Numbered from the stretch's first letter, positions 2,871-22,081 are shown. The stretch is DNA of 24,000 bases from an uncultured Nitrospirales bacterium (GCA_964373355.1 CAYJUM010000025.1:7366-31365); one strand, 5' to 3'. Program-made: numbers and translations. The notes: generated from the sequence alone by a model not told the origin.

Positions 2871-3010
2871 GTGAGGAGTGAGGGGTGAAGTGTAAGGGGA
2901 CAGGAATCGCTGCACACTCCTCTCGGTGTGGCCTTCTTTTATTTTTTACCCTGCTATACCTGACGCCTCGACGGTTGTTTGCTCCTCACTCCTCACCCCT
3001 CACTCCTCAC
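2871..3010. repeat. Heptamer-built inverted repeat (locus A): GTGAGGA-type arm and TCCTCAC-type arm
   Basis: Left arm 2871-2898 reads gtgagga gtgaggg gtgaagt gtaaggg. Right arm 2983-3010 reads tcctcac tcctcac ccctcac tcctcac. Positions 2871-2890 pair with 2991-3010 at 19 of 20 positions, enclosing a 100-nt loop. Confidence 0.9.
2913..2949 (+). terminator. Weak hairpin plus T-tract inside the loop of locus A
   Basis: CACAC (2913-2917) pairs with GTGTG (2926-2930). TTCTTTTATTTTTT follows from 2934, the only long T-run I saw in the window. The stem is only 5 bp, so this is tentative. Confidence 0.25.
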
Positions 3011-3017
3011 TGACCAG

Positions 3018-4022
3018 ATGCCTGACCTCGGCGGAATGCTCCTGGTCGTCGTGCTGCTGGCCCTGGCCTTTGATTTTTCCAACGGCTGGCACGACAGCGC
3101 CAATGCCATCGCCACGGTAGTGTCCACGCGCATCCTCAGCCCCGTCGTCGCCGTCCTGATGGCCGGGTTCCTGAACGTCGTCGGGGCGTTCATGTCCACG
3201 GCCGTCGCGAAGATGGTCGGGGCCGGCATCGTGGATCCCAACGCCGTCAGCCAGACCGTCGTGGCCGCCGCGCTCGCGGGGGCCATCCTCTGGAATCTGC
3301 TCACGCTCATGCTGGGGCTGCCCACCAGCTCCTCGCACGCCTTGATCGGCGGGCTGGTCGGCGCGGGGCTGTCCCACGGCGGCTGGGCGGTCGTGAAGCT
3401 GGGCGGGCTGCGGTCGGTCCTGGAGGCGATGATCCTCTCGCCGTTCTTCGGGTTTGTGATGGGGTTCATGCTCATGCTGGCGATCAGCTGGGCCTTCTTC
3501 CGGACGGCCCGAAGCCACGCCACGCGGCTCTTCGGGCGCCTGCAGCTCATCTCGGCGGGGTTCATGGCGTTCAGTCACGGGGCGAACGACGCACAGAAGG
3601 CGATGGGGATCATCACGCTGGCGCTGCTGTCGGCCGGACAGATCACGACGCCCGAAGTGCCGTCCTGGGTGATCATCTCCTGCGCGCTGGCCATGGGCCT
3701 CGGCACGGCCGTGGGGGGCTGGCGGATCGTCCGCACGCTCGGCATGCGGATTCTGAAGCTGGAGCCGGTGCACGGCTTCGCGGCGGAGACCGGCGCGGCC
3801 ACCGTGCTCCTCGCCACGGCGCACATCGGCCTGCCGGTCAGCACGACGCACACGATCACCTCGTCGGTGATGGGGGTCGGGGCGGTGAAACGGCTGTCGG
3901 CGGTGCGCTGGGGGGTGACGGCGAGGATCCTCTCGGCCTGGGTGCTCACGCTCCCGGGTGCGGCGTTCCTGGCGGCGCTGGCCTATGCGGCGCTGTCCTT
4001 CGGGCGATCCGTCGCGGGGTGA
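3018..4022 (+). CDS. pit: Inorganic phosphate transporter, PiT family
   Basis: Both PiT signature regions are present: FSNGWHDSANAIATVVSTR and FSHGANDAQKAMGIITL. The protein is polytopic and hydrophobic throughout. I place the start at ATG 3018 (MPDLGGMLLVVV...). The track start at 2979 would translate the heptamer repeat (LLTPHPSLLTDQ). Confidence 0.9.
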   Translation: MPDLGGMLLVVVLLALAFDFSNGWHDSANAIATVVSTRILSPVVAVLMAGFLNVVGAFMSTAVAKMVGAGIVDPNAVSQTVVAAALAGAILWNLLTLMLGLPTSSSHALIGGLVGAGLSHGGWAVVKLGGLRSVLEAMILSPFFGFVMGFMLMLAISWAFFRTARSHATRLFGRLQLISAGFMAFSHGANDAQKAMGIITLALLSAGQITTPEVPSWVIISCALAMGLGTAVGGWRIVRTLGMRILKLEPVHGFAAETGAATVLLATAHIGLPVSTTHTITSSVMGVGAVKRLSAVRWGVTARILSAWVLTLPGAAFLAALAYAALSFGRSVAG

Positions 4023-5803
4023 GTCTCCACGGGCTGCGCGGCCGGCAGCCTGACGACAAAGCGGCTTCCTGAGGGCTGTAGCCCTTCGACCCACACCTGG
4101 CCGCCGTGCCCTTCCACGATGTGCCGCACGATCGCCAGCCCGAGCCCGGTCCCGCCCATCTCTCGCGAGCGGGCCTTGTCCACCCGGTAGAACCGTTCGA
4201 ACACGCGGGGCCGGTCGGCCTCGGGGATCCCCGGGCCGGTGTCGCTGACCCGCAGCTCCACCACGTCCGCCTGCTCGGCGGCCTTGGCGTCGACGGTGAT
4301 CGTCCCGTGCGGCGGGGTGTACTTCACGGCGTTATCCAGCAGGTTCGTCAGCACCTGGACGAGCCGCTCCTCATCCCCGCAGACGGCCGGCAGGTCCGGC
4401 GGCAGCATCACATGGAGGATGTGCCCCTTCTTTTCCGACAGGGGGCGGATGAGCGAGAGCGTCCGGTCCACGACCGCCTCCAGGCGGACGGCGTCCCGTT
4501 TGAACACCACTTGGCCGGACTCGATCTGCGAGAGCTGCAGCAGGTCCTCCAGGATGAGGTTGAGCCGGTCGCTCTGCTTGAGGATGATCTCCAGGAACTG
4601 CCGGCTCTCGTCGGGGTTGTCCTTGGCGCCGTCCAGCAGGGCCTCGACGTAGCCCTTGATCGAGGTCAGCGGCGTGCGGAGCTCGTGCGAGACGTTCGCG
4701 ACGAAGTCCCGGCGGACGTGCTCGAGCCGCCGCAGCGCGGTGATGTCGTGGAAGACCAGCACGGCGCACGGCTCGTTCGGGGGGCGGCCCGCCACGACGA
4801 TGGCGTCGATGCGGAAGGTCAGGCCGCTCAACGCCAGCTCCACGCTCTGCGTCTCCCGGATGATGAGCACCTTGGTCGCCAGGTCTTTCAGGTCGTCATG
4901 GGGCAGGGCCTCCTGGTAGGAGCGGCCGGCCACCTCGCTCGCCCGCACGCCCAGCATCCGCTCCAGCGCCGGATTGATCAGCAGCACCGTGCCCCGGCCG
5001 TCCAGCACCATGATGCCTTCGACCATCGAGCGCAAAATGCCGAGGAGCTGCGCGCGCTCGTCCGAGACCTCCAGGATCGTCGTCTCGAGCTGGTCCGCCA
5101 TGCTGTTCAAGGTCGTCGCGAGCACGCCCAGCTCATCCCGCGAGGACGTCCGGATCCGTTCGCCGAGGGCGCCGTCCGCCAGGCGGCGGGCCACGGCCGC
5201 CATTTCGGCGAAGGGGCCCGTCACGCCCCGGGCCAGCAGGATGCTCAGGATCACCGAGACGAGGAACGCCACGCCGAAGGCGATGCCGAGCGCGTACTCC
5301 AGCTTCCTGATCTGGACTTCGAGCTCGGTCAGGGGGACCGCCAGCCGGACGATGCCGGCCGGCGCGCCGGGGGGACCGACCGAGATCGCCAGATAGAGCA
5401 TCCGCAGTCCCACCGTTCCGCTGAGACGGACGTCGGTGCCGAGGCCGCTGCGCAGGGCCTCGACGACCTCCGGGCGGGCGGCGTGGCTCTCAATGGTCGG
5501 GACGGCCTCATCCGCCGTGTAGCTGTCGGCCAGCACGGTGCCGTCGGGCCGGATCACGGTGATCCGGGCCTGCGCGCGCCTCCCCAGCTCCTTGGCGGCG
5601 CGCTGCAGCCCGGCCGTGCCGGTCCCCGACCGCAGCCCGCTCTCCAGGGACAGCGCCGCGAGGTTCGCGCGGGCGACGAGCGTGTCGGTCAGCCGGCCGG
5701 TCTCCAGCCGCTCGATCGAGCGCAGCGCCAGCGCGCCGGCGATCGCCAGCCCCAGGCTCACGGCCAGCAACGAGCCCAGCGTCAGCTTCCAGCGGATGCT
5801 CAT
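3983..5803 (-). CDS. phoR: PhoR-like sensor histidine kinase (TM, periplasmic domain, TM, HAMP, PAS, HisKA, HATPase)
   Basis: H-box FVANVSHELRTPLTSIKGY, N-box LLDNAVKYTP, G1 VSDTGPGIP and G2 GGTGLGLAIV are present. There are two hydrophobic segments (LGSLLAVSLGLAIAGALAL and IAFGVAFLVSVILSILLA), then a HAMP-like linker and a PAS-like block (MVEGIMVLDGRGTVLLINPA). It lies next to an OmpR-family regulator and a Pi transporter. The PhoR assignment is by resemblance and context, not proven. Confidence 0.75.
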   Translation of the reverse strand: MSIRWKLTLGSLLAVSLGLAIAGALALRSIERLETGRLTDTLVARANLAALSLESGLRSGTGTAGLQRAAKELGRRAQARITVIRPDGTVLADSYTADEAVPTIESHAARPEVVEALRSGLGTDVRLSGTVGLRMLYLAISVGPPGAPAGIVRLAVPLTELEVQIRKLEYALGIAFGVAFLVSVILSILLARGVTGPFAEMAAVARRLADGALGERIRTSSRDELGVLATTLNSMADQLETTILEVSDERAQLLGILRSMVEGIMVLDGRGTVLLINPALERMLGVRASEVAGRSYQEALPHDDLKDLATKVLIIRETQSVELALSGLTFRIDAIVVAGRPPNEPCAVLVFHDITALRRLEHVRRDFVANVSHELRTPLTSIKGYVEALLDGAKDNPDESRQFLEIILKQSDRLNLILEDLLQLSQIESGQVVFKRDAVRLEAVVDRTLSLIRPLSEKKGHILHVMLPPDLPAVCGDEERLVQVLTNLLDNAVKYTPPHGTITVDAKAAEQADVVELRVSDTGPGIPEADRPRVFERFYRVDKARSREMGGTGLGLAIVRHIVEGHGGQVWVEGLQPSGSRFVVRLPAAQPVETHPATDRPKDSAA

Positions 5804-5807
5804 ACGA

Positions 5808-5891
5808 GGTGATCGGTGATGGGTGATGGGTGATGAGCGGGTGATGAGTGATGGGTGCTCAAGTCACTGATCACCGATCACCCATCACTGT
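5808..5891. repeat. Heptamer array and inverted repeat (locus B): (GGTGATG)n facing (TCACYNA)n
   Basis: Plus strand reads ggtgatc ggtgatg ggtgatg ggtgatg (5808-5835), agcg, then ggtgatg agtgatg ggtgctc (5840-5860). The opposing arm is tcactga tcaccga tcaccca tcactgt (5864-5891). Positions 5808-5820 pair perfectly with 5870-5882, and 5848-5857 can pair with 5879-5888. The element fills the phoB-phoR intercistronic gap and overlaps the last codons and stop of phoB. Confidence 0.9.
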
Positions 5892-6567
5892 CCTTGAGCT
5901 TGTAGCCGAGTGATTTGACCGAGACGATGGCGTCGTCGAGCACCGGCATTTTCTGCTTGAGGCGGCGGACGTGGACGTCCACGGTGCGGGTGGTGCCGTA
6001 GTAGTCGTAGCCCCAGACGGCATTGAGCAGCTGATCCCGGGTCAGCACCCGTCCGGGGTTTCGCAGCAGATGCTCGAGCAGGCCGAACTCCTTGGTGGTG
6101 AGCGAGACCTCCTGGCCGTCCATCTTCACCTCGTGCCGCGAGCGGTCCAGGACCAGGGATTTATACACGTAGCGCGCCGAGTCTTCGTCCGTCCGGTCCA
6201 CGCGCCGGAAGAGCGCCTTGACGCGCGCGACCAGGGCCTTGGGGCTGAAGGGCTTCGTGATGTAATCGTCGGCGCCGAGCTCCAGGCCAATGACCGTGTC
6301 CGACTCCTCGGCTTTGGCGGTGAGCATGATGATGGGAATCATCGCGGTCTGCCGGTCCGCGCGGATGCGCTTGCAGACCTCCAGGCCGTCCATCTCGGCG
6401 AGCATCAGATCGAGGATGATCAGGTCGGGATGCTCGGCCTTGACCTGCGTGAGCGCCTCGAGCCCCGTCAGCGCCGTGGCGGTGCGGTATCCTTCCTTCT
6501 CCAGATAGAGCTTCAGGAGCTGGAGGATGTCTTTTTCGTCCTCGACGATCAGGATTTTCTTGCTCAT
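5878..6567 (-). CDS. phoB: OmpR/PhoB-family response regulator
   Basis: Receiver motifs are IVEDEKD, ILDLMLAEMDG (phospho-Asp context) and ITKPF. The winged-helix C-terminus reads LTTKEFGLLEHLLRNPGRVLTRDQLLNAVWG...RTVDVHVRRLKQK. It lies immediately upstream of the kinase on the same strand. Confidence 0.85.
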   Translation of the reverse strand: MSKKILIVEDEKDILQLLKLYLEKEGYRTATALTGLEALTQVKAEHPDLIILDLMLAEMDGLEVCKRIRADRQTAMIPIIMLTAKAEESDTVIGLELGADDYITKPFSPKALVARVKALFRRVDRTDEDSARYVYKSLVLDRSRHEVKMDGQEVSLTTKEFGLLEHLLRNPGRVLTRDQLLNAVWGYDYYGTTRTVDVHVRRLKQKMPVLDDAIVSVKSLGYKLKDSDG

Positions 6568-6674: not shown

Positions 6675-6758
6675 GGCTCTGGCTGTTGACGCCAGGGGCT
6701 CGTCTGACGTATGGTGGCCGTGCCTCGCTGACGGCTGAATGCTGAGAGCTGAGGGCGC
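6675..6758 (+). repeat. In-phase heptamer tract (locus H) ending in four GCTGANN units just before ispH
   Basis: Twelve consecutive 7-mers share one phase from 6675 to 6758; 10 of 12 end in G and 7 of 12 in TG. The clear core is gctgacg gctgaat gctgaga gctgagg (6727-6754). The last unit supplies the SD-like GAGGG, 10 nt before the ispH ATG. Confidence 0.65.
6686..6715 (+). promoter_or_regulatory. Candidate promoter for ispH
   Basis: TTGACG (6686-6691), an 18-nt spacer, then TATGGT (6710-6715), about 50 nt upstream of ispH. Motif match only. Confidence 0.3.
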
Positions 6759-6764
6759 CTACGA

Positions 6765-7721
6765 ATGAAAATCTACCTTGCGAGTCCCCGCGGATTCTGC
6801 GCCGGCGTGGACCGCGCCATCGACATCGTGGAGCTGTCGCTGAAGATCTACGGCGCGCCCATCTACGTGCGCCACGAGATCGTGCACAGCCGCCACGTGG
6901 TGAACTCCCTCCGCGAGAAGGGCGCCATCTTCGTGGAGGAGCTCGATCAGGTGCCGGATGGCTCGATCGTGATCTTCAGCGCGCACGGCGTGGCGAAGTC
7001 GGTGTGGGAAGACGCCGGCCGCCGCGGGCTGAAGGTCATCGACGCGACCTGCCCGCTCGTCATCAAGGTGCACAACGAGGTCAACCGGGACCACACGCAC
7101 GGCTACGAGCTGATCCTGATCGGGCACGCGGGGCACCCCGAGGTCATCGGGACGCTGGGGCAGATCCCCGACAAGTTCCATCTGGTCTCCTCAGTGGCCG
7201 ACGTCGAACGGCTGCAGGTCGAAAACCCCGACCACCTGTCCTACGTGACCCAGACCACCCTGAGCGTCGATGAATGCCGGGACATCGTCGAAGCCCTGAA
7301 CCGCCGATTTCCAGGCATCAAAGGCCCGCACCAGGAAGACATCTGCTACGCCACGCAGAATCGGCAGAACGCCGTCAAGGAGTTGGCGAAGCTCGTGGAC
7401 GTGATCCTGGTCATCGGCTCGCCGAACAGCTCGAACTCGAACCGCCTGCGGGAGCTGGCCGAGTACTGCGGCATTTCCTCCTATCTGATCGATTCCTCCG
7501 CGGACATCAACCCGCAATGGATCGCCAGCGCCAACGCGGTGGGCATCTCGGCCGGCGCCTCTGCGCCGGAAGTGCTGGTCACCGAGGTAGTGGACTATCT
7601 CAAGCGCACCAGCCCCACCGGCGTCGACGCCGTCGAAGAGCTGACGGTGATCGAGGAGGACGTGGAATTCCTGCTCCCCAAGGAGCTCGTGAATCCGCTC
7701 CCCTCGGCGCGCCTCTCCTAG
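6765..7721 (+). CDS. ispH: 4-hydroxy-3-methylbut-2-enyl diphosphate reductase (IspH/LytB)
   Basis: N-terminus [19 protein letters not shown] carries the first cluster Cys. [10 protein letters not shown] (second Cys) and ICYATQNRQ (third Cys) are present, and the length of about 318 aa fits. Confidence 0.95.
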
Positions 7722-7723
7722 AT

Positions 7724-7821
7724 TCTCCCGTCACTCGTCGTCCGTATCTCGTATCTGGCCGCTCGCCTCTCGTCGTTCGCACTGGATCGACACTTCACGC
7801 TTCACGCCTTACGCTTCACGG
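7724..7821 (+). repeat. In-phase heptamer tract (locus C): 14 units ending in (CTTCACG)4
   Basis: Starting 3 nt after the ispH stop: tctcccg tcactcg tcgtccg tatctcg tatctgg ccgctcg cctctcg tcgttcg cactgga tcgacac ttcacgc ttcacgc cttacgc ttcacgg. The 98 nt keep a single phase. I found no complementary arm nearby. Confidence 0.8.
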
Positions 7822-7877
7822 GTTCCCCATATCTTGTGGCCTGTCGTCCTCCATGCCCTCCATCCTGTATTTGTACT

Positions 7878-7967: not shown

Positions 7968-10900
7968 ATGATGTACCTCAAGTCGCTCGAGCTCACGGGG
8001 TTCAAGTCGTTCGTCCAGGCCCGGATCGACTTCCCGGCCGGCATCACCGCCGTGGTCGGTCCCAATGGCACGGGCAAGACCAACGTGGTGGACGCCATCC
8101 TCTGGGTGCTGGGCGAACAGAGCACGAAGACGCTGCGGAGCGACCGGATGGAGGACGTGATCTTCAACGGCACCGAGACCCAAAAGCCGCTGGGGATGGC
8201 GGAGGTCTCCCTGATCATGAGCGGGCTCTCCGAGCGGAACTTCGAGGGTGTGACGCTGCCGCACGGGCTGGGCGACTTTCAGGAAGTCATGATCACCCGG
8301 CGGCTGTTCCGGAACGGCGACAGCGAGTACCTCATCAATAAGACCCTCTGCCGCTTGAAGGACATCCGCAGCCTGTTTCTCGACACCCGGGCGGGGAGCA
8401 AGGGCCACACGATCATCGAGCAGGGGCGGATCGACCAGATCTTGAACGCCTCGCCACAGGATCGTCGCGAGCTGATCGAGGAGACCGCCGGCATCGTGCG
8501 TTACAAGAAGCAGAAGGCCGAGGCCCTCCGGAAGCTCGAAGCCACCCAGCAGAACCTGCTGCGCGTCCGGGACATCATCGCGGAAGTCCGCCGCCAGTTG
8601 AACTCGCTCGAGCGCCAGGCCCGGCAGGCCCGGAGCTACCAGACCCTGCAGGGTGAAGCGAGGCTGCTGGAGCTTCGCTTGCTGGTCCGTGAGTACCAAG
8701 GGTTGCTGGCCGCGCAGGAAACCGAGGAGGCCGAGCTCGCCGGGCTGGAATCGGTGGAGGCCGGGCAGCTCGCCGAGCAGGCGCGCCTGACCCGGGACGT
8801 CGAGGCCGTGAAGCTGGGCCTCACCACCTGCGATCAGACGATGAGCCGACTGCGCGAGGAGCTCGGCGGCGTCGAGCAGCGCCAGGGGCAGGCGGTGACC
8901 GCCACCGAAGTGGAACGGGAGCGTCTGAAGCTCTACGAGCAGCAGCGCGGCCAGGCCCGCGAGGATCTGCAGCGCCTCAAGGCGGACGCCGAGCAGGCGA
9001 CGGTCACGATCGCGGAGGCCGAAACCGCGCTCGTCAAGGCCGACGCCATGATCAGGGAGCAGGGCAAGACGGTCTCGGCGCTCGAGCAGGAGGCGGTGCG
9101 CCTCGCGACCGGACGGGCCGAGGCCCTCGAGGAGCTCGAGCGGGCCCGTCGCAGGATCATGGACCTGACGGTGGAGGCGGCCGGCGCCGAGAACGCCGTG
9201 ACGAGCCTCGATGCGCGCCGGCAGGAGGCGGCGCGGCGGGCCGAGCGGCTGGCGAGCGAGCGGGGTGAGCTCGAGACCCAGCGCGCGGCGGTGTCGGGCC
9301 GCCTGCAAGACCTCCTGCGCCACCGGGACGCCGGGCGGGCCCGCCTGCAAGACCTGCAAGCCTCCCGGGAGAGCCGGGCGCAGGAGTGCCGGGATGTGGA
9401 AGAGGAGCTGCAGGAGCTCGGCGGCCGGCTCGGCGGGCGGCAGCAGGAGCTGGCCGGCGTCCAGTCGCGTGCCAGGGCCCTGCAGGGCATGCTGCGCGAA
9501 GAGATGGGGTACGGCCGGGAAGGGGACGAACACGCCAGATCCCTGCGCGAGGCGTGCGCCGGCATCCGCGCGGCCGTGGCCGAGGGGCTGGAGGTGCCGC
9601 CGCGGCTGGTCCCGGCGGTGGAAGCGGTCCTGGGGGAACGGCTCCGTGCCTGGATCGTGAGTCATCCGAAGGACGGGCGCCAGGCCGTCGGATTCCTCGC
9701 GGAGCGCGGCCTGGGCCGCGGCGCATTCGTGCCGCAAAAGCCCCGCATCGGCACGGCCGGCAAGCAGGCGCCGGGCTGGTGGGCCGCCCTCCGGCACGAA
9801 GCGGGCGTCCTCGGCAGGGTGATCGAGCTGGTGACGGTGTCGAAGGAATGGCGGGACGCATTCGTGTGCCTGCTCGCCGACGTGGTGGTGGTCGAGAGCC
9901 TGGATGCCGCGCTGCGGATCTGGGAGAGCGGCAACTGGACCCGCGGCGCGGGCCCGATGCTCGTCACGCTCGACGGCGTCACGATCGATCCGGCCGGCGT
10001 CATGACCGGCGGCAAGACGGGCGCCTCCGGCGGTCTGCTGCAGCGCCGAGAGGAAAGCCGCGAGCTGGAGGCGAAGGAGCGCGAGCTGGCGCAGGCGGTC
10101 GAGACGACGCGGCGTCTCATCGAGCAGGCGTCGGCCCGCCAGGAATCGCTGCGCCAGCAGCTCGAAGCCCTGGAGGCGGACATCCGTGCGGCGGAGATGC
10201 AGGAGATCGGGCTCGCCAAGGATACCGAAGGGCTCACGCAACGACTCGAGGAACTGGGCCGCGGGGTCGAGGTCATCGACTCCGAGGAGACCAACGAGCA
10301 GGACGTCCGCCGCGGATGCGACACGGAGATCGCCGCGGCGCAGGAGCGCCTGGCGCAGACGCGTGCTGCGCAGGACCGGGAAGAGCAGGCGCTGCGCGCC
10401 CTGGCCACGGCCGTGGCGGCCAGGGAGCAGGAGGGCCACGCGCTGCAGGAGCGGCTCGGCGCGGCCCGGCTGGCGCTGACCACGCTGAGCGAGCGGCGGG
10501 AACGCCATGCCACCGACCTCACCCGTCTGCGAAGCGAGCGAGAGGAGCGCGCCGGCGCGATTCAGTCGTTGGAGCGTCAGATCACCGCGCTGGAGTCGCA
10601 GACCCGGCGCAGTTACGCGGAACGGGACCGCCACGAGGCGCTCTTCAAGGAGCTCGAGCAGCAGGCGGCGCGCCTCAAGGCCGACCTGCAGTTGGCGCAG
10701 GAGACACAGACCCGAGGGATCGAGGAGCTGAAAGGGCTGGAGCACCGGCTGGGGACGGTGCGTGAGGCGCTGGCCTCTGGCCGCGAGACGAGGACCGCCG
10801 TGGCGGTCCGCCTGGCCCAGCTCAAGACCCGGAAGGCGGCGGTCGAGGAGACGCTCGGCGCCACCTATCAATTGTCCATCGAGTCGGCGCTCGAGGAGGT

Positions 10901-11636: not shown

Positions 11637-11639
11637 CCG

Positions 11640-11668
11640 CATCACCCATCACCCTTCACGCATCACGC
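11640..11668 (+). repeat. Heptamer tract (locus D): atcaccc atcaccc ttcacgc atcacgc
   Basis: It starts 4 nt after the smc stop. CATCACCCATCACC (11640-11653) is identical to the reverse complement of 5815-5828 in locus B. CTTCACGC is shared with locus C. Confidence 0.8.
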
Positions 11669-11682
11669 CCGCCTTGGGCGTG
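11664..11682 (+). terminator. Short GC hairpin after smc
   Basis: CACGCCC (11664-11670) pairs with GGGCGTG (11676-11682) around the loop GCCTT. No U-tract follows. It overlaps the last heptamer of locus D. Confidence 0.3.
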
Positions 11683-11690
11683 CGCAAACC

Positions 11691-13980: not shown

Positions 13981-13990
13981 CCTCCGGCCT

Positions 13991-14039
13991 CGTGATCGGT
14001 GATACGTCTTCAATCACCAGTCACGAATCACCAATCACT
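13991..14039. repeat. Heptamer hairpin (locus E) between shc and the hpnG-like gene
   Basis: Left arm is cgtgatc ggtgata (13991-14004). Right arm is aatcacc agtcacg aatcacc aatcact (14012-14039). Positions 13991-14003 pair with 14013-14025: 11 Watson-Crick pairs, one T-G wobble and one mismatch, with a 9-nt loop. GTGATCGGTGAT (13992-14003) is identical to 5809-5820 in locus B. Confidence 0.85.
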
Positions 14040-14042
14040 GCC

Positions 14043-14813: not shown

Positions 14814-15589
14814 TGGGTCTACAGGACAGCGTCAGGAAGATCGGCCGCCCCATGACCCTCGTCCTCGAGGACATGGGCCGGATGCTGCTGTTTCTCCTCT
14901 CCACCTTCGGCTGGCTCCTGCGGCCGCCCTTCCGGCCGTTCCAGATCATCAAACAGATGCATTTCATCGGGTTCAAATCGACCTTCGTGGTGGTGCTGAC
15001 CGCCGTCTTCACGGGCATGGTGCTCGGCCTGCAGGGGTACTACACGCTGCGGAAGTTCGGGTCGGAGGGGTTGCTCGGGTCGGCCGTGGCGCTGAGCATC
15101 ATCCGGGAGCTCGGGCCGGTGCTCGCGTCCTTGATGGTCACCGCCCGGGCCGGGTCGGCGATGACGGCGGAGCTCGGCATCATGCGGATCACCGAGCAGA
15201 TCGACGCGCTCGACACCATGGCCATCAATCCCCTCCAGTACCTGGTCGCGCCGAAGGTCGTGGCCGGCCTGCTCGGCGTGCCGTTCCTCGTGGCGATCTT
15301 CGACGTGGTGGGGATCTACGGCGGGTACATCGTGGGGGTCGACCTGCTCGGGGGCAATCCCGGCGCGTACTGGAGCTCAATGGAGTCGTCCGTCGAATGG
15401 AAGGACGTCTACGGCGGCATTCTCAAATCCATCAGTTTCGGATTGCTTATCGCCTGGGTCTGCAGTTACAAGGGCTATTACACGCGGCCGAGCGCCGAGG
15501 GACTGGGCACGGCGACGACCGAGGCCGTGGTGCTGGCGTCCGTGCTGATCCTGGTGTGGGATTATTTCCTGACGTCCGTCCTCCTCTAA
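14813..15589 (+). CDS. mlaE: MlaE-type ABC transporter permease
   Basis: Characteristic MlaE/YrbE blocks: QMHFIGFKSTFVVVLTAVFTGMVLGLQ, LGSAVALSIIRELGPVLASLMVTARAGSAMTAELGIMRITEQIDAL and INPLQYLVAPK. ATG 14813 overlaps the hpnG stop TGA (14811-14813) by 1 nt; GTG 14810 is an alternative start. Confidence 0.9.
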   Translation: MGLQDSVRKIGRPMTLVLEDMGRMLLFLLSTFGWLLRPPFRPFQIIKQMHFIGFKSTFVVVLTAVFTGMVLGLQGYYTLRKFGSEGLLGSAVALSIIRELGPVLASLMVTARAGSAMTAELGIMRITEQIDALDTMAINPLQYLVAPKVVAGLLGVPFLVAIFDVVGIYGGYIVGVDLLGGNPGAYWSSMESSVEWKDVYGGILKSISFGLLIAWVCSYKGYYTRPSAEGLGTATTEAVVLASVLILVWDYFLTSVLL

Positions 15590-15593
15590 AACG

Positions 15594-15682
15594 GTGAGGA
15601 GTAAAGGGTGAAGAGTCAGGGGTTAAGGTGGGAAAGAATCATGATTCCTACCCTTCACCCTTTACTCCTCACTCCTTACTGG
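15594..15682. repeat. Heptamer hairpin (locus F) between mlaE and mlaF; perfect 20-bp stem
   Basis: Left arm is gtgagga gtaaagg gtgaaga gtcaggg gttaagg (15594-15628). Right arm is ctaccct tcaccct ttactcc tcactcc ttactgg (15648-15682). Positions 15594-15613 pair perfectly with 15653-15672. The loop holds a perfect 12-nt palindrome GAATCATGATTC (15636-15647). Confidence 0.92.
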
Positions 15683-15687
15683 CACCG

Positions 15688-16428
15688 ATGATACGGCTCG
15701 AGGGCGTCGAAAAGACACTGGGCGGGCAGCCGGTCCTGCGCGGGGTCAACCTGACCGTGCCGGTTGGGAAGCTCACCACCATCATCGGGAGAAGCGGCGG
15801 TGGCAAGTGCGTCCTGTTGAAACACATGATCGGCCTCCTGCAGCCGGACCGGGGCAAAGTCTGGGTGGGGGACGTGGACATCTCCCACCTCCGGTCCAAG
15901 GAGCTCAACGAGGTCCGCAAGCGTTTCGCGATGCTCTTCCAGGGGGCGGCGCTCTTCGATTCCTTGACGGTGTTCGACAATGTCGCCTTCCCGCTGCGCG
16001 AGAAACTGCACCTGCCGGAGGACGAGGTGCGGACCCGCGTGGAAGAAAAGCTTGACCAGGTGGGGCTGGCCGACATGGGCCATAAATTTCCGGCGGAGCT
16101 GAGCGGGGGCATGAAAAAGCGCGCCGGCCTCGCCCGGGCGCTGGTGATGGAGCCGGAGATCATCCTGTTCGATGAACCGACCACCGGGCTGGACCCTCTG
16201 ATGGCCAAGACCATCCATGATCTCATCGTCGCGATGCACCGGGCCTTCGGGTTCACGGCCGTCATGGTGAGCCATGAAGTCCCGGAGATCTTCGCGATCT
16301 CGGATTGGGTGGCGATGCTCCACGAGGGGACCATCATCTCGATGGCCCCGTCGGCGGAGTTCCAGCGGGTCACGAATCCGGTGGTCCACGAGTTCATCAC
16401 GGTGGGCGGCACGGCCCTCAACCCTTAA
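15688..16428 (+). CDS. mlaF: MlaF-type ABC transporter ATP-binding protein
   Basis: Walker A GRSGGGKC, Q-loop LFQGAALF, signature LSGGMKKRAGLARAL, Walker B IILFDEPTTGLDP and H-loop VSHE are present. I place the start at ATG 15688 (MIRLEGVEK...). The track start at 15628 would translate the repeat. Confidence 0.9.
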   Translation: MIRLEGVEKTLGGQPVLRGVNLTVPVGKLTTIIGRSGGGKCVLLKHMIGLLQPDRGKVWVGDVDISHLRSKELNEVRKRFAMLFQGAALFDSLTVFDNVAFPLREKLHLPEDEVRTRVEEKLDQVGLADMGHKFPAELSGGMKKRAGLARALVMEPEIILFDEPTTGLDPLMAKTIHDLIVAMHRAFGFTAVMVSHEVPEIFAISDWVAMLHEGTIISMAPSAEFQRVTNPVVHEFITVGGTALNP

Positions 16429-16442
16429 CGCACGGAGCGGAT

Positions 16443-16886
16443 ATGGAACGAGCGAAGCTGGAGTTTGTGGTCGGGATCTTCGTGCTGGTGGGATTGGCCG
16501 CCCTCGCCTACCTCTCGATCAAGCTCGGCAAGCTGGAGGTGATCGGTGGACGGATGTACGAGCTCGATGCGGTCTTCGATTCGGTCTCGGGGCTCAAGCC
16601 GGGGGCCACGGTGGAGGTGGCCGGCGTCGAGGTGGGGCGCGTGAAGGGCATCCGGCTGAACGACGACCGGGCGACGTTGAGGCTGGCGATCCGCGACGGC
16701 GTGACCCTCTACACGGATGCCATCGCCTCCATCAAGACCCGTGGCATCATCGGCGAAAAGTATGTGTCGCTCTCGCCCGGCGGCGGCGGCGAGCCGTTGA
16801 AACAGGGGAGCAAGATCCGCGACACCGAGTCCGGCGTCGATCTCGAGGAGTTGGTCAGCCAATTCATCCATGGGAATGTAAAATAA
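16443..16886 (+). CDS. mlaD: MlaD-type MCE-domain protein (single MCE domain, short)
   Basis: N-terminal anchor KLEFVVGIFVLVGLAALAYLSI. The MCE core reads YELDAVFDSVSGLKPGATVEVAGVEVGRVKGIRL...ATLRLAI...YTDAIASIKTRGIIGEKYVSLSPG. I place the start at ATG 16443, after GGAG. Confidence 0.85.
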   Translation: MERAKLEFVVGIFVLVGLAALAYLSIKLGKLEVIGGRMYELDAVFDSVSGLKPGATVEVAGVEVGRVKGIRLNDDRATLRLAIRDGVTLYTDAIASIKTRGIIGEKYVSLSPGGGGEPLKQGSKIRDTESGVDLEELVSQFIHGNVK

Positions 16887-16909
16887 TACCGTCCGGAGGT
16901 AGAGGTCAC

Positions 16910-17524
16910 ATGAACACCACAATTCGGGTCGGCATCGGCATCATTGTCGTGATGTTGTCGTATGTCGGGGTCCAGGCGGCCGCCGCCGGGCAGGCGACCG
17001 ACCAATTGAAAGGGACCATCGACGAGGTCGTCCGCATCCTGACCGACAAGGAGATGAAGAAGCCCGAGCGCACGGATGAACGCCGCCGGATCCTGGAGAA
17101 AGTGATCGGCGATCGGTTCAGCTACGATGAAATGTCGAGACGGGCTCTGGCGGCCCAGTGGAACAAGCTGAACGACGACCAGCGGAAGGAGTTTGTCTCG
17201 CTCTTCCAGCGGCACCTCGCCAATGCCTACACCGGGAAGATCGAAGGGTACAAGGGCGAGCAGATCCGGTTCATGAACGAGCGGTTGGAAGACAACACCT
17301 ATGCCGAGGTCCGGTCCAAGCTCGTCACCGAGAAGACCGAGATTCCCTTGGACTACCGGCTCATCAACAAGTCCGGCGAGTGGCGCGTGTACGACGTCAT
17401 CGTCGACGGCGTCAGTCTGGTGAACAACTATCGCGGCCAGTTCACGCGGATCATCCGCTCCTCCTCCTATGAGGATCTCGTCGAGCGGCTGCGGAAAAAG
17501 TCCGACGACCTGAAGGCTCCCTGA
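16910..17524 (+). CDS. mlaC: MlaC / Ttg2D-family periplasmic lipid-binding protein
   Basis: Signal peptide MNTTIRVGIGIIVVMLSYVGVQAAAA. Family-typical blocks: FSYDEMSRRALAAQWNKLNDDQRKEFVSLFQRHLANAYTGKI and WRVYDVIVDGVSLVNNYRGQF. SD GGAGGTAGAGG (16895-16905) precedes ATG 16910. Confidence 0.88.
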   Translation: MNTTIRVGIGIIVVMLSYVGVQAAAAGQATDQLKGTIDEVVRILTDKEMKKPERTDERRRILEKVIGDRFSYDEMSRRALAAQWNKLNDDQRKEFVSLFQRHLANAYTGKIEGYKGEQIRFMNERLEDNTYAEVRSKLVTEKTEIPLDYRLINKSGEWRVYDVIVDGVSLVNNYRGQFTRIIRSSSYEDLVERLRKKSDDLKAP

Positions 17525-17541
17525 CCCGTCACCGGGGGGAG

Positions 17542-18762
17542 ATGCAGCGACCACTCCGCCGCGTCGCGACCCTGCTGCTCTGGGCCGTGCTCCCCCTCGC
17601 GGCTCTGACTGCCGCGCCGTCTCTGGCGGCGGCGGCGGCGGCGGAGACCTCCTACTTTCCGATCCCCACCGTGTCGACCACCCGCAACGACGGGAACGAC
17701 GCGGGCTTTATCGTGCCGATCCTCGTCACCGAGCCGAGCGGGGACCTGAAGTACGTCATGGCCCCCATGTTCGTCGTGAACTCGATCGTCGGCGCGCGCG
17801 GTTCCTTCAACCTCTTCCGCTATGAGCCCGGCGGACGCGAGATGCGGTTCATCGGGTCGTTCACCGAGCGGATCGAGCGCAAGCTCGTGTTCAGCTACAC
17901 CGATCCCGCGTTCAGGAACGGCCAGTACGCGCTGAGCGTCGGCGGGTCCTTTTTCAAGAACGCGACCGCCCGGTTCTTCGGTATCAGCCAGGATACGCCG
18001 CTCAGCAACGAGTCGAACTACACCGCGCGCGAGGTGCGGGCCTACTGGAAGCTCGGGCTCCATCTGAACGAAGTCACGCAGGTGGCCGTCGGCGAGCGGT
18101 TTCGAGAGGTACGGGTGCAGCCGGGCGGCGCGACCAGCCTGCCGTACTCACTGGACCTTTTTCCGACCGTGGACGGCATGCAGGGCGCCTCCATCCTCGG
18201 CCACCGCCTCACGTTCCACTATGACACGCGGGACAATCTGGTCTCCCCGACGGCCGGCTCGCAAGTCACGGTCTATGCCGAGGTGAACCAGAACCTGAAA
18301 AACGGCGACAACCCGGTGTATACGCGCTACGAGCTGGAATTCCGGAAGATCTTTCCCAGCGAGTCGAAGCGGGCCATCCTCGTGGTGCGGGGCGATCTGC
18401 AGACCACCTTCGGCACCGAGGTGCCGTTCTACGAACGTAGCTCGCTGGGCGGGCAGAACAACTTGCGCGGCTACGGCGTGGACCGATTCATCGACAAGCA
18501 CCTCATCGCCATCAACGTCGAGAACCGGCTGCACGTGATGCGGACGAGGGTGATGGGGGTCGCGGCGGAGTTTGAAGTCGCGCCGTTCGTGGATATGGGC
18601 AAGGTGTTCAGTTCGTTCAGCAAGAAACCGTTCACCGGCTACGAAGTGACGCCGGGCGTCGGGTTTCGGGGCATGGTCCGCCCGAACGTCGTCGGCCGGG
18701 TGGACTACGGGTACAGCAAGGAGGGCGGGGCGGTTTTCGCTGGCCTGGATTATCCGTTTTAG
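17542..18762 (+). CDS. Omp85-family (bacterial surface antigen / D15) outer-membrane beta-barrel with no recognisable POTRA domains
   Basis: Signal peptide ends ...LAAAAAAE. Barrel motifs are DTRDNLVSPTAGSQV and ERSSLGGQNNLRGYG, and alternating amphipathic strands run through the sequence. The C-terminus is aromatic (GLDYPF). At 406 aa there is only about 20 residues between the signal peptide and the first strand-like segment. Confidence 0.75.
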   Translation: MQRPLRRVATLLLWAVLPLAALTAAPSLAAAAAAETSYFPIPTVSTTRNDGNDAGFIVPILVTEPSGDLKYVMAPMFVVNSIVGARGSFNLFRYEPGGREMRFIGSFTERIERKLVFSYTDPAFRNGQYALSVGGSFFKNATARFFGISQDTPLSNESNYTAREVRAYWKLGLHLNEVTQVAVGERFREVRVQPGGATSLPYSLDLFPTVDGMQGASILGHRLTFHYDTRDNLVSPTAGSQVTVYAEVNQNLKNGDNPVYTRYELEFRKIFPSESKRAILVVRGDLQTTFGTEVPFYERSSLGGQNNLRGYGVDRFIDKHLIAINVENRLHVMRTRVMGVAAEFEVAPFVDMGKVFSSFSKKPFTGYEVTPGVGFRGMVRPNVVGRVDYGYSKEGGAVFAGLDYPF

Positions 18763-18797
18763 TCAGCGAGTGGGGGCCACGGATGTCGTGTAAGCGC

Positions 18798-18827
18798 TTG
18801 ACAGTAAAAGAGGTTCTGTGTGAGACT
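18798..18827 (+). promoter_or_regulatory. Candidate promoter for dxs-ispG
   Basis: Perfect TTGACA (18798-18803), then TGtGAGACT (18819-18827). The spacing and TGn layout match the shc promoter candidate, but the -10 hexamer is weak. A small hairpin, GAGACT (18822-18827) with AGTCTC (18842-18847), would sit at the 5' end of the leader. Confidence 0.3.
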
Positions 18828-18888
18828 AGCCGGGCTTTTGCAGTCTCGAACCTCGGGGCAACCCTGGAGTTCGGGAGGAGAGGGAACG

Positions 18889-20784
18889 ATGTCCATACTC
18901 AAGACACTCCATAGCCCTGCAGATCTGAAGAAATTGTCTCCTGCGGACTTTCCGGCCCTCTGCCAGGAGATTCGGGAGCAGATCCTCGAGGTGGTGTCGA
19001 ACGTCGGCGGCCATCTGGCTTCCAACCTCGGCGTGGTGGAGCTGACCGTGGCCCTCCACTATCTGCTCGACACGCCGACGGACAAGATCGTCTGGGACAC
19101 GAGCAATCAGGCGTATGCCCACAAACTGCTCACCGGGCGGCGGGAGCAGTTTCATACCCTGCGGCAGTACGGGGGCCTGAGCGGGTTCTGCAAGCGCGAG
19201 GAAAGCCCCTATGACACGTTCAACGCCGGGCATGCGGGCACCGGCATTTCCGCCGCGCTGGGGATGGTGGAGGCGCGCGAGCAGCAGGGGCGCCACCACA
19301 AAGTCGTGTGCGTGGTAGGCGACGGCGCCATGACCGCCGGCATGACCCTGGAGGCCCTCCATCATGCGGGCGGACTGCACAAGGACTTTCTGGTGCTGCT
19401 GAACGACAACCAGATGTCCATCTCACGGAACGTGGGCGCCATCTCGGCATACCTCAATCGCACGTTTACCGGGGAGTTCTACACGAGAATCAAGGAGGAG
19501 ACCGGGCTGTTCCTCAAGGCCCTGCCCCACATCGGGCAGCCGGTCGGCAAATTCGCCCGCAGGGCCGAGGAGCTGGCCAAAGGGTTGATCCTGCCCGGCC
19601 TGCTGTTCGAGGAGCTGGGGTTCCGGTACGTCGGTCCCATCGACGGCCATAACTTCGAGCATCTCCTGCCGACCCTGGAGAACGTCCTCCGCCTGAAAGG
19701 CCCGACGCTGCTGCACGTGATCACCAAAAAGGGCCTGGGCTATGAACCGGCGATGAAGAACCCCGTGTGGTTCCACGCGTGCCCCGCGTTCGTGAAGGAG
19801 ACCGGCGAGCCGGCCAAGAAGCCGGCGCGGCCCTCGTACACGAGCGTGGCCGTGAACACCCTCGTGAAGCTGGCACGGCAGGACGAGCGGATCGTCGCGA
19901 TCACCGCGGCCATGTGCGAAGGGACCGGTCTCACGGCCTTCGAGAAGGAGTTCCCGCGCCGGCTGTACGACGTCGGCATCGCCGAGCAGCATGCCGTGAC
20001 GTTTGCCGCGGGGCTGGCGGCGCAGGGGATGCGCCCGGTCATCGCGATGTACTCGACCTTTCTCCAGCGGGCGTACGACCAGGTCGTGCACGATGTCGCC
20101 ACCCAGAACCTGCCCGTGAGTTTTCTGATCGATCGGGGAGGGCTCGTGGCGGAGGACGGGACGACCCACCACGGCGCGTTTGACCTCGCGTACCTGCGGC
20201 ATGTCCCGAACATGACGGTGATGGCCCCCAAGGATGAGAACGAGTTGCAGCACATGGTGGCCACCTGCGTCCGGCACGACGGTCCCGCAGCGGTCCGCTA
20301 TCCCCGCGGCCTGAGCCTGGGGGTGCCGATGGATGCGGACCCGGCCACGCTTCCCATGGGACAGGGCGAGCTGCTGCGGGCGGGGACCGATGTGGCGATC
20401 ATCGCGATCGGCGTGACCGTGTGGCAGGCGGTGCGGGCGGCGGCGCGTCTGGCGCAGGAGGGTATCTCGGCGGCGGTCGTGAATGCCCGGTTCGTGAAAC
20501 CCCTCGACGCCACGCTCATCGCGGACGTCGCGCGGCAGGCCCGTTGCGTGCTGACCGTGGAGGAGGGTGCGAAGATGGGCGGCTTCGGGTCGGCGGTGCT
20601 GGAGGCGCTGGCCGAGCAGGGGCTGTCCCTCCCGACCGCGATGCTCGGCCTGCCGGACTGGTATATTGAGCAGGGGCCCCAGGATCTGCTGCGCGAGAAA
20701 TACGGCCTCACGGCGGATAACATCTACGAGCGCGCCAAGGCGCTTCTGACCGGGGCGGTGTCCCGGGCCGAGGTGCCCCGGTGA
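18889..20784 (+). CDS. dxs: 1-deoxy-D-xylulose-5-phosphate synthase
   Basis: Motifs present: [19 protein letters not shown], the ThDP motif [20 protein letters not shown]...[38 protein letters not shown] and [17 protein letters not shown] place the start at ATG 18889, after GGGAGGAGAGGGA. Confidence 0.93.
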
Positions 20785-20800
20785 CGGCGTAACGGACCGC

Positions 20801-22000
20801 ATGCATATCGCCAGAAAAAAGACCCGCCAGATTAACGTCGGCCGGGTGAAGATCGGCGGCGACGCGCCGATCTCGGTCCAGTCCATGACCACGACCGACA
20901 CCCGCGACGTCAAGGCGACGGTCGAGCAGATCCACCGCCTGGAGCAGGCCGGCTGCGAATTGATCCGCGTGGCCGTGCCGGACATGGAGGCGGCCGCGGC
21001 GCTGCCGAAGATCAAGGCGCAGATGACCGCCCCGCTCATCGCCGACATCCATTTCGATCACCGGCTGGCCTTGAAGGCGGCGGAGGTCGTGGATTGCGTC
21101 CGCATCAATCCCGGCAATATCGGGGCCTGGTGGAAGACGGCGGAGGTGCTCAAGGCCGTCACCGACCGAGGCATCCCGCTCCGCGTGGGAGTCAACGGGG
21201 GCTCATTGGAGCGCCACCTTCTGGACAAGTACGGGTATCCCACGGCGGAGGCGCTGGCGGAGTCGGCGCTGAACGCGGTCCATGCCCTGGAGGACGTCGG
21301 TTTCACCAACATGAAGGTGTCGCTCAAGGCGTCGGATGTCCACCTGGCCGTGGACGCCTACTGGCTGTTTTCGCTGCAATCGAACTATCCGCTCCACATC
21401 GGGATCACCGAGGCGGGCACGGTGCTGACGGGCGCCGTCAAGTCCGCGATCGGACTCGGCTGGCTGCTGTCACAGGGGATCGGGGACACCTTGCGCGTCT
21501 CGCTCGCGGCCGATCCCGTGGAAGAGGTCAAGGTCGGGTTCGAGATCTTGAAGTCGCTGGAGCTCCGTCACCGGGGGATCAACGTCATCGCCTGTCCGAC
21601 CTGCGGCCGCGTGGAGATCGACGTGGTGCGGATGGCCAATGAGCTGGAGCAGCGGCTCGGCCATATCAAAGTGCCGCTCAACGTCTCGGTGCTGGGCTGC
21701 GTCGTGAACGGCATCGGCGAGGGCAAGGAGGCGGACATCGGCATCGCCGGTGGCGAGGGAGTCGGCATCCTGTTCAAGAAGGGGAAGTTGCTGCGGAAGG
21801 TCCCCGCCGAAGAGCTGATGGACACCCTGATCCAGGAAGTGGAGCTCTTGGCCAAGGAGAAAGAGGCTGAGGAAGGCGCGGCCGGGGCCGGCGCTGAGGA
21901 TCCCGATGGCTCCGGGTCAGAAACGCCGCTCTCCGCCGCCTCGTCCCTCGCCCCGTCGCGCGCCCCGCGCGAGGTCCCCGTCCTCCCCCCACGCCGCTGA
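20801..22000 (+). CDS. ispG: 4-hydroxy-3-methylbut-2-en-1-yl diphosphate synthase (IspG/GcpE)
   Basis: Motifs present: [50 protein letters not shown], and the cluster Cys contexts VIACPTCGR and [17 protein letters not shown]. It carries a roughly 49-aa low-complexity C-terminal tail. Confidence 0.93.
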
Positions 22001-22010
22001 CGCTCGTCTA

Positions 22011-22081
22011 GAAAGTCCAAAGTCTCTAAGTCGTCAAGTCGCGATAGACTGTAGACTTGATAGACTTTCGACTTTTGGACT
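22011..22081. repeat. Imperfect long hairpin (locus G) built from AAGTC / GACTT units between convergent genes
   Basis: AAGTC occurs at 22013, 22020, 22028 and 22036. GACT occurs at 22047, 22054, 22063, 22070 and 22078. There are three helices: 22014-22024 with 22070-22081 (11 bp, 1-nt bulge), 22028-22032 with 22063-22067 (5 bp), and 22034-22040 with 22054-22060 (7 bp). The loop is 13 nt. It fills most of the 84-nt gap between the ispG stop and the stop of the minus-strand gene, so it is a likely bidirectional terminator. Confidence 0.8.

Follow-up and report, generated by a model that had tools for sequence, protein, structure and literature searches.

We have identified a population of short-unit palindromic repeats at the gene junctions of an uncultured Nitrospirales bacterium. 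The window, i.e. the whole stretch of DNA that was analysed, comprises 24,000 nucleotides (GCA_964373355.1, CAYJUM010000025.1:7366-31365; positions are counted from its first letter), and eight of its junctions, designated loci A to H, carry tandem arrays of degenerate units, mostly heptamers, which at five of them form the two opposed arms of a hairpin. These elements display the behaviour of indel-polymorphic, fast-turnover DNA with dynamics resembling those of REPINs (hairpins formed by two repetitive extragenic palindromic (REP) sequences) or MITEs (miniature inverted-repeat transposable elements), and not that of conserved regulatory RNAs. Since unrelated elements, or none, lie between identical boundaries in genomes diverged by 2-3%, we are dealing with a fast-turnover repeat population. 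The loci may well be a lineage-amplified population of palindromic elements of the short tandemly repeated repetitive (STRR) or long simple sequence repeat (LSSR) type, grown by slippage, maintained symmetrically on both strands and tolerated at junctions. With moderate confidence, we regard them as the Nitrospiraceae representatives both of the heptanucleotide LSSR/STRR class and of the paired tandem-repeat sites known from Geobacter.

Two sets of sequences were available for comparison. Over the shortest distance, contig CAMTXR010000048.1 of a metagenome-assembled genome (MAG) of Nitrospiraceae (GCA_947085775.1) aligns to the window at 99.86% identity and is referred to below as the MAG contig. 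Over larger distances, orthologous junctions were extracted from 80 loci around shc in genomes and from 80 around mlaE in metagenomes; single loci of this sample carry L numbers.

Heptamer arrays in the window

When the 15 spacers between genes of the window were pooled (1,394 nt), the self-match at lag 7 was 0.415 (535/1289), with harmonics at lag 14 (0.355) and lag 21 (0.308) and the other lags at 0.25-0.30; coding DNA gave 0.264 at lag 7 and showed a lag-3 series only. Spacers make up about 6% of the window, yet they hold all seven strong period-7 arrays returned by our segment caller, each of them intergenic or touching a stop codon, as compared with 0.89 expected per window from Markov-1 simulations. 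For other periods the caller returned 0-4 arrays, all in coding DNA. At individual loci, except G and H, the top peak was at lag 7 (0.56-0.81; p ≤ 0.0035, 2000 shuffles), and Tandem Repeats Finder gave a period of 7 for A, B, C, D and E and of 14 for F. The heptamer periodicity of the window spacers is real and statistically overwhelming. A preliminary description of this DNA had noticed tandem heptamer tracts in the spacers and had named shuffled controls as the check on them; the tracts stand, and the signal clearly exceeds that of the controls. The eight loci are composed as follows.

Locus A, 2870-2902: 5' (G-rich) arm, GTGAGGA GTGAGGG GTGAAGT GTAAGGG, lag-7 self-match 0.68, 5 nt past the stop of the phoU-like gene.
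Locus A, 2903-2978, plus strand: long 'loop', with one single-nucleotide difference from the MAG contig at 2934.
Locus A, 2979-3012: 3' (C-rich) arm, four units of (CTCCTCA) type, lag-7 self-match 0.81, ending 6 nt before the pit ATG.
Locus B, 5806-5857: GGTGATS array of about seven units with a 4-nt interruption, lag-7 self-match 0.71; read on the sense (minus) strand, this is the C-rich 3' arm, its end lying 4 nt ahead of the ATG of the histidine kinase (HK) gene.
Locus B, 5862-5892: second arm, four units, lag-7 self-match 0.67; this is the G-rich 5' arm when read on the sense (minus) strand.
Locus H, 6724-6758, plus strand: periodic part, one-armed, GCTGACG GCTGAAT GCTGAGA GCTGAGG, just upstream of the ispH ATG.
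Locus C, 7724-7823, plus strand: one-armed array with a C-rich sense strand, immediately behind the ispH stop.
Locus D, 11638-11670, plus strand: one-armed C-rich array, CGCATCA CCCATCA CCCTTCA CGCATCA, lag-7 self-match 0.77, directly after the smc TGA.
Locus E, 13991-14041: short 5' arm GTGATCG GTGATAC and four-unit 3' arm ATCACCA GTCACGA ATCACCA ATCACTG.
Locus F, 15592-15684: 34-bp hairpin between the mlaE stop and the mlaF ATG.
Locus G, 22009-22083: hairpin built from AAGTCNNN units, with a period of 8 intermixed with 7, flanked by the convergent ispG and a hypothetical gene.

All eight loci are intergenic, as first described, with the qualification that B (5864-5891) also extends into the response regulator (RR) gene, over its final four codons (DSDG) and its TGA stop; the open reading frame (ORF) of this gene ends at 5878. 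A 7-nt period, which had been ascribed to every locus, holds for A-F. The left arm of G peaks at lag 8 (0.52) rather than lag 7 (0.40), and H, with 0.45 at lag 7 over the whole locus and 0.64 over 6724-6758, is clearly periodic in the latter part alone, 6675-6723 being weakly periodic and including a promoter-like site at 6686-6715. The longest run in a single phase, 14 units as had been claimed, is found in C, where NNNCTCG-type units are followed by four copies of CTTCACG (lag 7 = 0.57; subparts 0.63 and 0.74). The arms of F comprise 5 and 4-5 units of GTGAGGA/GTAAAGG type with a period-14 superstructure, and E ends 3 nt before the ATG of the hpnG-like gene (14043). D lies upstream of a promoter-like TTGACA-N17-TATAAG of shc (about 11691-11721); in the closest relative, L085, this promoter-like sequence is kept and the adjacent D array is not.

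The shared blocks reported earlier were all recovered. The 12-mer GTGATCGGTGAT occurs in B and E (5809 and 13992, and on the minus strand at 5870), the 14-mer CATCACCCATCACC in D (11640) and in reverse-complemented B (minus strand, 5815 and 5822), and the left arms of A and F are identical at 18/20 positions. Likewise, G and the mlaE/mlaF element of L006 have the 13-mer AAGTCGTCAAGTC in common.

RNA folding separates the two kinds of locus just as first described. The two-armed loci fold as long hairpins (z of -6.05 for A, -5.43 for B, -3.55 for E, -7.49 for F and -4.41 for G), and the one-armed ones fold weakly (C, z -0.17; H, z -1.68) or, in the case of the D array, stay unpaired. No U-tract or T-run follows any periodic stem at the loci of the window, i.e. 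none of the stems has the form of an intrinsic terminator, and Rfam 15 at the gathering threshold matched only the tRNA-Cys in the window and none of the stems. Canonical terminators and known RNA families, both considered as identities of the stems, were found at none of them. The sole terminator-like site in the eight loci, a stem followed by a long T-run at 2913-2946, lies within the 76-nt 'loop' of A, whose heptamer arms thereby bracket what appears to be an ordinary phoU-pit intergenic terminator.

The arrays also affect gene calling. The longest ORFs from 2979 (TTG), 13956 and 15628 cross the C-rich arm of A, E and F, respectively, and share their frame with the ATGs at 3018, 14043 and 15688 that homology supports; these upstream starts give spurious N-terminal extensions. 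A fourth start, that of smc at 7836, had also been suspected to read through a repeat; it is spurious (the true start is 7971), but lies beyond the end of tract C (7821).

Independent confirmation came from 9 kb of the same contig upstream of the window, where we identified five further GTGA-type sites, three of them two-armed, which brings the occupancy of this genome to about 13 of 22 spacers in 33 kb.

Occupancy and turnover at orthologous junctions

Among 825 distinct spacers from about 160 related loci, the top lags were again 7 and 14, and strongly periodic spacers fell into period 7 (53), period 8 (11), period 6 (4) and period 5 (1). Junctions differ widely in occupancy: mlaE/mlaF is periodic in 56/141 loci and empty (1-5 nt) in 30, phoU/pit is periodic in 10/23, and phoU/pit, dxs/ispG and RR/HK are of intermediate occupancy, while shc/hpnG, the junction of E, is occupied in 1/145 and mlaC/omp85 in 0/106.

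Where present, the mlaE/mlaF element is always a 65-120-nt hairpin with periodic arms, and its unit varies by genome: GTGAGGA, GGTGATG, GTGCTGA, GACTCAG (ten units), ATGGTCA, GAGCGAC and GGGCGAT at period 7, GAGGCT at period 6, and AAGTCNNN and AACCAGAT at period 8. A purely '7-nt periodic' label is therefore too narrow, since relatives use periods 6 and 8 at the same junctions and G itself belongs to a period-8 AAGTC family. This family was found at no fewer than five different junctions, and L021 and L025 are rich in elements of its type; generally, unit families reappear elsewhere, both at other junctions and in genomes that are only distantly related. Similarity of units is slightly higher within a genome than between genomes, at borderline significance (permutation p about 0.05). 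On the squalene-hopene cyclase (SHC) tree, the mlaE/mlaF states are scattered, and sister genomes differ in units and periods.

The most direct evidence for turnover comes from L043 and L070, which are 97-98% identical over 22 kb. At three hairpin sites the element has been replaced, or is present in one and absent from the other, between identical flanks: pit/HK carries unrelated elements of 110 and 86 nt between the same boundaries, mlaE/mlaF carries unrelated elements, and RR/HK has an 80-nt hairpin in L043 and an empty ATGA stop/start overlap in L070. In the alignment of this one pair over the 22-kb locus, the large breaks coincide with elements. The closest relative of the window found in a metagenome scan, L085 (best MlaE identity, 89%), is without D or E, carries another family at the F junction and has a one-armed GTGAGG-type array at the G junction; at this distance, turnover is already complete. 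A comparison of orthologous spacers had been proposed earlier as a way of separating mobile from regulatory sequences, and its outcome is presence/absence polymorphism of a mobile-like kind, not the conservation of a regulatory site.

Smaller changes were also seen. The same arm has 4 units in L047 and 3 in L050. At pit/HK of L040, a CGAAGTC/CGAAGTT-type hairpin is nested in the loop of a GCGAGAC-type hairpin, which suggests that insertion favours palindromes already in place. Between the window and the MAG contig, we counted 24 substitutions and a (GGC)2 indel. The latter, a two-unit (6 nt) difference in a (GGC)n tract of the Omp85-family gene (17625-17644), is the only repeat-length polymorphism of this comparison.

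Two other kinds of sequence were encountered in the related loci. One is an element that is MITE-like and non-periodic, 120-260 nt long and with terminal inverted repeats similar to GGAGGCTGAAAAAGGC...GCCTTTTTGAGCCTCC; it occurs at heptamer-hairpin junctions (L083, 8541-8660; mlaE/mlaF of L026 and L033; phoU/pit of L033) and once just outside the window. The other is a C-rich heptamer array of CTCTAGC/CTCTCGC type immediately upstream of the tRNA-Cys promoter TATAAT, at about 16.7 kb in L038 and at 21.3-21.7 kb in L036, L047, L061 and L071; in the window, the tRNA-Cys promoter is present (TTATAAT, about 22617) without the array.

Polarity and composition of the arms

Despite the variety of units, the elements obey a few common rules. 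The 5' arm has more G than C in 60/67 hairpins, the opposite being true in 7, and because arm order is invariant to reverse complementation, this polarity holds on either strand. Arrays are typically of about 4 units; the two-armed loci A, B, E, F and G have 2-7 units per arm, and loops measure 3-79 nt family-wide. The upstream stop and the downstream start lie about 3-13 nt from the base of the stem, and the downstream genes are frequently without a Shine-Dalgarno sequence after the 3' arm.

A GTGA/TCAC core, which had been proposed for most loci, is real and family-wide (34/80 consensus units, z 10.5), but the more general core is TGA/TCA, present in 57/80 against 18.9 expected (z 10.8). Translation that enters an element meets its first stop after 36 nt on average, as compared with 52 nt when the arms are swapped (p = 2e-5), and three genes, the RR genes of the window and of L043 and the HK gene of L070, end on a TGA of an arm.

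Across 58 periodic hairpins, the minimum free energy (MFE) of the RNA was lower for the sense strand in 31 and for the antisense strand in 26 (p = 0.67). Selection for an RNA-specific stem was consequently dropped as an explanation. That both strands fold equally well argues for upkeep of the complementarity at the DNA level. Of the C-rich arrays, 19/23 are found in the 3' half of the spacer, and of the G-rich ones, 7/8 in the 5' half (Fisher p = 0.0009).

Comparison with known repeat systems

The preliminary description compared the tracts with STRR repeats and with REP sequences or bacterial interspersed mosaic elements (BIMEs), and the comparison is apt at the level of the class: the arrays of degenerate heptamers are intergenic and dispersed. 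Cyanobacterial STRR sequences are heptanucleotide repeats reportedly described by Mazel in 1990. Their consensus units are CCCCAGT, TTGGTCA and CAACAGT. None of the window units matches these consensus sequences, and ATGGTCA of L032 and L071 only resembles STRR2. In common with the heptanucleotide LSSR/STRR class, A-F and the 3' part of H have at least three head-to-tail 7-nt units, and the loci are many, dispersed and enriched in non-coding DNA. Heptamers are given as the most abundant class of long simple sequence repeats in bacteria by Mrazek 2007, as quoted in PMC4679880.

Paired tandem-repeat 'global regulator binding sites' were reported in Geobacter metallireducens (Aklujkar et al. 2009, PMC2700814), on opposite strands at variable distance and with 3-5 tandem units of 7-9 nt each (GTTGCTYN x4, TCTCCGTS[Y] x3 and MTYCTGA x5, with a CTGA core). 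They exist in tens of copies and species-specific families, and one pair lies between the co-transcribed proB and proA, where a sister species differs; binding by integration host factor (IHF) or HU is a hypothesis of the source paper (PMC2700814). In their arrangement, these sites are the closest published architecture, and A, B, E, F and G likewise consist of two sites of short tandem units on opposite strands at a variable distance. Whole sites are conserved at the BLAST level in Geobacter, whereas the Nitrospira copies are looser arrangements of degenerate units. Analyses of polarity, turnover and folding, unpublished for Geobacter, are given here for Nitrospira.

The GGGAATC and GGGGA(C/T)T repeats of Xanthomonas and Nostoc (Rehm 2015, PMC4692102) are 7-nt repeats at many dispersed non-coding loci between co-directional genes, G-rich on the coding strand just after or overlapping a stop and C-rich just before a start. 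About 4 units are common, inverted copies exist, and related species have repeats of other length and sequence between the same gene pairs (PMC4692102). The Nitrospira elements display the same polarity (60 vs 7), but at least four tracts of G capable of forming a G-quadruplex (G4) occur in only 1/34 strong arrays. STRR and GGGAATC repeats are G4-capable, each genome having one or a few units in near-perfect copies. The Nitrospira elements further differ from them in being degenerate, of several families (GTGAnnn, GCTGAnn and AAGTCnnn, none with near-perfect units) and rarely G4-capable, and in that most copies have two opposed arms with 30-40-bp stems. As G4 potential is nearly absent here, the G4 explanation of PMC4692102 cannot account for the same features in this genome, where the polarity and the size of about 4 units occur almost without such potential and the TGA/TCA core is enriched.

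REPIN and REP-BIME elements (Bertels & Rainey 2011, PMC3116915; Di Nocera 2013, PMC3733652) are likewise extragenic hairpins of 70-120 nt with two inverted halves. The likeness extends to a density of hundreds per genome, lineage-specific families, location in operon spacers, presence/absence polymorphism and insertion into palindromes. By inspection, however, the GTAG/CGTC end tag of REP sequences is absent from the arms of A, B, E, F and G; REP arms consist of a conserved 20-40-nt REP, and the Nitrospira arms of internally periodic arrays. Nor do we see near-identical family copies as in REPINs: units and blocks are shared (the 12-mer, the 14-mer and the 18/20 arm), without a full-length consensus. 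MITEs are recognised by terminal inverted repeats, target-site duplication and relatedness to insertion sequences, and the elements lack this combination, with filled and empty sites differing without a duplication.

The TAACTGA direct repeats of marine Beggiatoaceae and cyanobacteria (MacGregor 2015, PMC4679880) are also intergenic heptamers near starts, often without a canonical ribosome-binding site, whose TGA supplies stops in forward translation and thereby confines them to gene ends and spacers. In contrast to the Nitrospira elements, they consist of a single exact unit in direct repeats (one inverted in 170) with no predicted secondary structure and, upstream of starts, show the forward TGA orientation on the sense strand (PMC4679880); the start-adjacent array in Nitrospira has the TCA orientation.

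We found no description of these repeats, or of any such repeat family for Nitrospira, in the literature, so that the preliminary description is not contradicted on this point. They are of a known but unexplained kind, and their occurrence in Nitrospira is newly described. Nitrospira are key nitrifiers whose genomes are nearly all MAGs. For annotation, it matters that the elements mislead gene callers while some genes truly end on element-supplied stops; the elements may be useful as strain markers and are likely assembly break points. The findings also bear on the old puzzle of why heptanucleotide repeats are over-represented in bacterial intergenic DNA, and wholesale replacement at fixed boundaries over short evolutionary time constrains any mechanism.

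Origin and maintenance of the elements

We propose that the arrays grow and are homogenised via replication slippage, for which the preference for 7 nt would be general in bacteria. Complementarity of the arms would be kept by a strand-symmetric DNA process, either intrastrand template switching or copying of the whole palindrome, and the equal folding of the sense and antisense strands fits such upkeep. Elements might spread, or be replaced, by element-specific mobility or by recombination. Three features would make them tolerable at junctions: the G-rich, TGA-bearing 5' arm would on either strand soon stop a gene running in, the C-rich 3' arm would place fewer stop codons beside the downstream start, and the stem would keep the stop of one gene and the start of the next no more than about 3-13 nt apart. 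Once transcribed, two-armed copies would be long intercistronic stem-loops, probably with a REP/BIME-like effect on mRNA stability or translational coupling, and the one-armed, C-rich, unstructured copies after stops (C and D) could be Rho-loading sites. It is plausible that such RNA-level effects are secondary consequences.

Several observations weigh against a slippage-grown, tolerated repeat population. We found neither a transposase nor a target-site duplication nor a conserved terminal motif, so mobility is deduced solely from the way in which elements are present at, or replaced between, sites. Alleles could also pass from one Nitrospira lineage to another by homologous recombination, with no transposition involved, and the 5' end of mlaF appears mosaic. 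Copies at different sites are varied arrangements of similar units with no master copy, unlike classical MITEs and REPINs, and zero heptamer-unit indels were detected across the eight loci against the MAG contig, i.e. the arrays are not hypervariable. The gain in stop codons is modest in the worst frame (median 63.5 vs 69 nt). Finally, the most regular arrays are C-rich on the sense strand in 23 cases and G-rich in 8, and at the opposite-strand RR/HK junction 5/5 arrays are C-rich on the sense strand. This asymmetry implies that some transcription- or translation-linked filter also acts; it hints at selection at the RNA or translation level, which purely selfish DNA does not predict.

The sense-strand preference of regular C-rich arrays, including those of the opposite-strand RR/HK pair, is also what would be expected if the elements were conserved cis-regulatory RNA stem-loops, such as attenuators, RNase III or other processing sites, stabilisers or coupling devices, with the periodic arms as a by-product. 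Hairpins of great stability (z to -7.5), occupation of the same operon junctions family-wide, stop and start codons at the base of the stem and the frequent lack of a Shine-Dalgarno sequence downstream of the 3' arm all point the same way. We nevertheless consider this explanation rather unlikely, as the mlaE/mlaF junction is empty (1-5 nt) in 30/141 loci and genomes of 94-98% identity differ by presence/absence or carry unrelated elements. A bias in stability between sense and antisense is absent, the stems are without a trailing U-tract, and Rfam gives no match to them.

Arrays of binding sites, with one heptad per protomer of a DNA bender of IHF/HU type or of an RNA-binding protein (S1, Csp, KH-type or Rho), would explain a TGA/GTGA core far beyond composition (z 10.5-10.8), the typical size of about 4 units, the weak preference of each genome for its own units (p about 0.05) and the one-armed arrays C, D and H. 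Similar hypotheses have been published, for IHF/HU in Geobacter (PMC2700814) and for an RNA-binding protein and TAACTGA (PMC4679880). However, several unrelated unit families and three periods are found at the same junctions, even within one genome, and GTGA, GCTGA and AAGTC units all occur in the window. Moreover, the units are degenerate, loci are lost without visible compensation and no candidate protein was identified, which makes this an unlikely account.

A more far-reaching alternative is that the elements are the footprint of a dedicated enzyme or binding protein, co-evolving with the unit, that writes, copies or replaces short-unit palindromes at gene junctions. We treat it as speculation with little chance of being correct, and would be just as hesitant to assume, as part of it, that Nitrospirota, Geobacter, Xanthomonas and cyanobacteria follow common rules (a unit of about 7 nt, a TGA/TCA core, a G-rich 5' arm and about 4 units per arm). 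If such a system existed, heptamer repeats would be a coherent class of bacterial elements comparable to REPIN-RAYT, not a by-product of slippage.

Two narrower candidates were considered from the sequences and set aside. A terminal motif CAGTGA...TCACTG with TA target sites, of the IS630/Tc1-like kind, is inconsistent, being present in some copies only. Mimicry of Shine-Dalgarno and anti-Shine-Dalgarno sequences was considered because the pairs GGAGGTGATC / GATCACCTCC resemble the arms; it suits only the GTGA family and not AAGTC, ATGGTCA or GAGCGAC, and the base after TCAC is unbiased towards 16S.

Slippage in place as the sole process, with the arrays as microsatellite-like contingency loci for phase variation of their neighbours, is very unlikely. 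A tandem head-to-tail 7-nt unit belongs to the most slippage-prone class (Mrazek 2007, as quoted in PMC4679880), and whole-unit differences exist between relatives, as in L047 and L050. Yet the unit number is constant at eight loci between 99.86%-identical sequences, which differ by the 24 substitutions and the (GGC)2 indel given above, and hypermutable microsatellites were rejected on this ground. Furthermore, the arrays are degenerate and not perfect, they are replaced wholesale by unrelated families at 2-3% divergence, and the flanking genes are housekeeping ones (methylerythritol phosphate (MEP) pathway, hopanoid, Mla, SMC) and not surface or contingency genes.

An identity as G-quadruplex-forming repeats, as with the GGGNATC heptamers known from Xanthomonas and Nostoc, can practically be dismissed and was rejected as a general account: four GGG tracts are present in the left array of B, and polarity and the preference for about 4 units match PMC4692102, but at least four G3 tracts occur in 1/34 strong arrays and at least four G2 tracts in 9/34, CGTGAAG, AAGTCNNN and ATGGTCA units cannot form G4, and the complementary arm competes for pairing.

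Genomic setting

The gene order of the window was derived from Pfam scans and the gene calls of the record. The encoded SHC is at most 78% identical to SHCs of Nitrospiraceae MAGs. The genes are listed in map order.

fabH: first gene in the map order of the window.
2241-2864: phoU-like gene (PhoU_div), TAA stop at 2862-2864.
3018-4022: pit, ATG at 3018.
3983-5803, minus strand: histidine kinase (HK), ATG at 5803.
5878-6567, minus strand: OmpR-type response regulator (RR).
6765-7721: ispH, ATG at 6765, stop at 7721.
7971-11636: smc, TGA at 11634-11636.
11818-13980: shc.
14043-14813: hpnG-like phosphorylase, ATG at 14043.
After the hpnG-like gene: mlaE, mlaF, mlaD and mlaC, with the mlaE stop at 15587-15589 and the mlaF ATG at 15688.
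Between mlaC and ispG: Omp85-family gene, then dxs.
20801-22000: ispG, stop at 22000.
Stop at 22085: convergent hypothetical gene, 3' neighbour of ispG.
22631-22706: tRNA-Cys.

The cluster shc / hpnG-like / mlaEFDC / Omp85-family / dxs / ispG (11818-22000 in the window), with ispH upstream, is conserved in about 60 related loci. A Mla-type lipid transporter and an Omp85 protein are thus embedded among hopanoid and MEP-pathway genes across Nitrospiraceae, which suggests that the cluster from shc to ispG is a hopanoid-linked envelope lipid transport module. In the window, pit and HK are convergent and overlap by 40 nt (3983-4022); in L043, L070 and L027, a spacer of 86-150 nt at this junction is occupied by periodic hairpins. 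Downstream of the tRNA-Cys, about 220 nt (22813-23031) gather 17 of the 24 substitutions and a 1-nt indel relative to the MAG contig, and are a strain-variable patch adjoining the tRNA gene.

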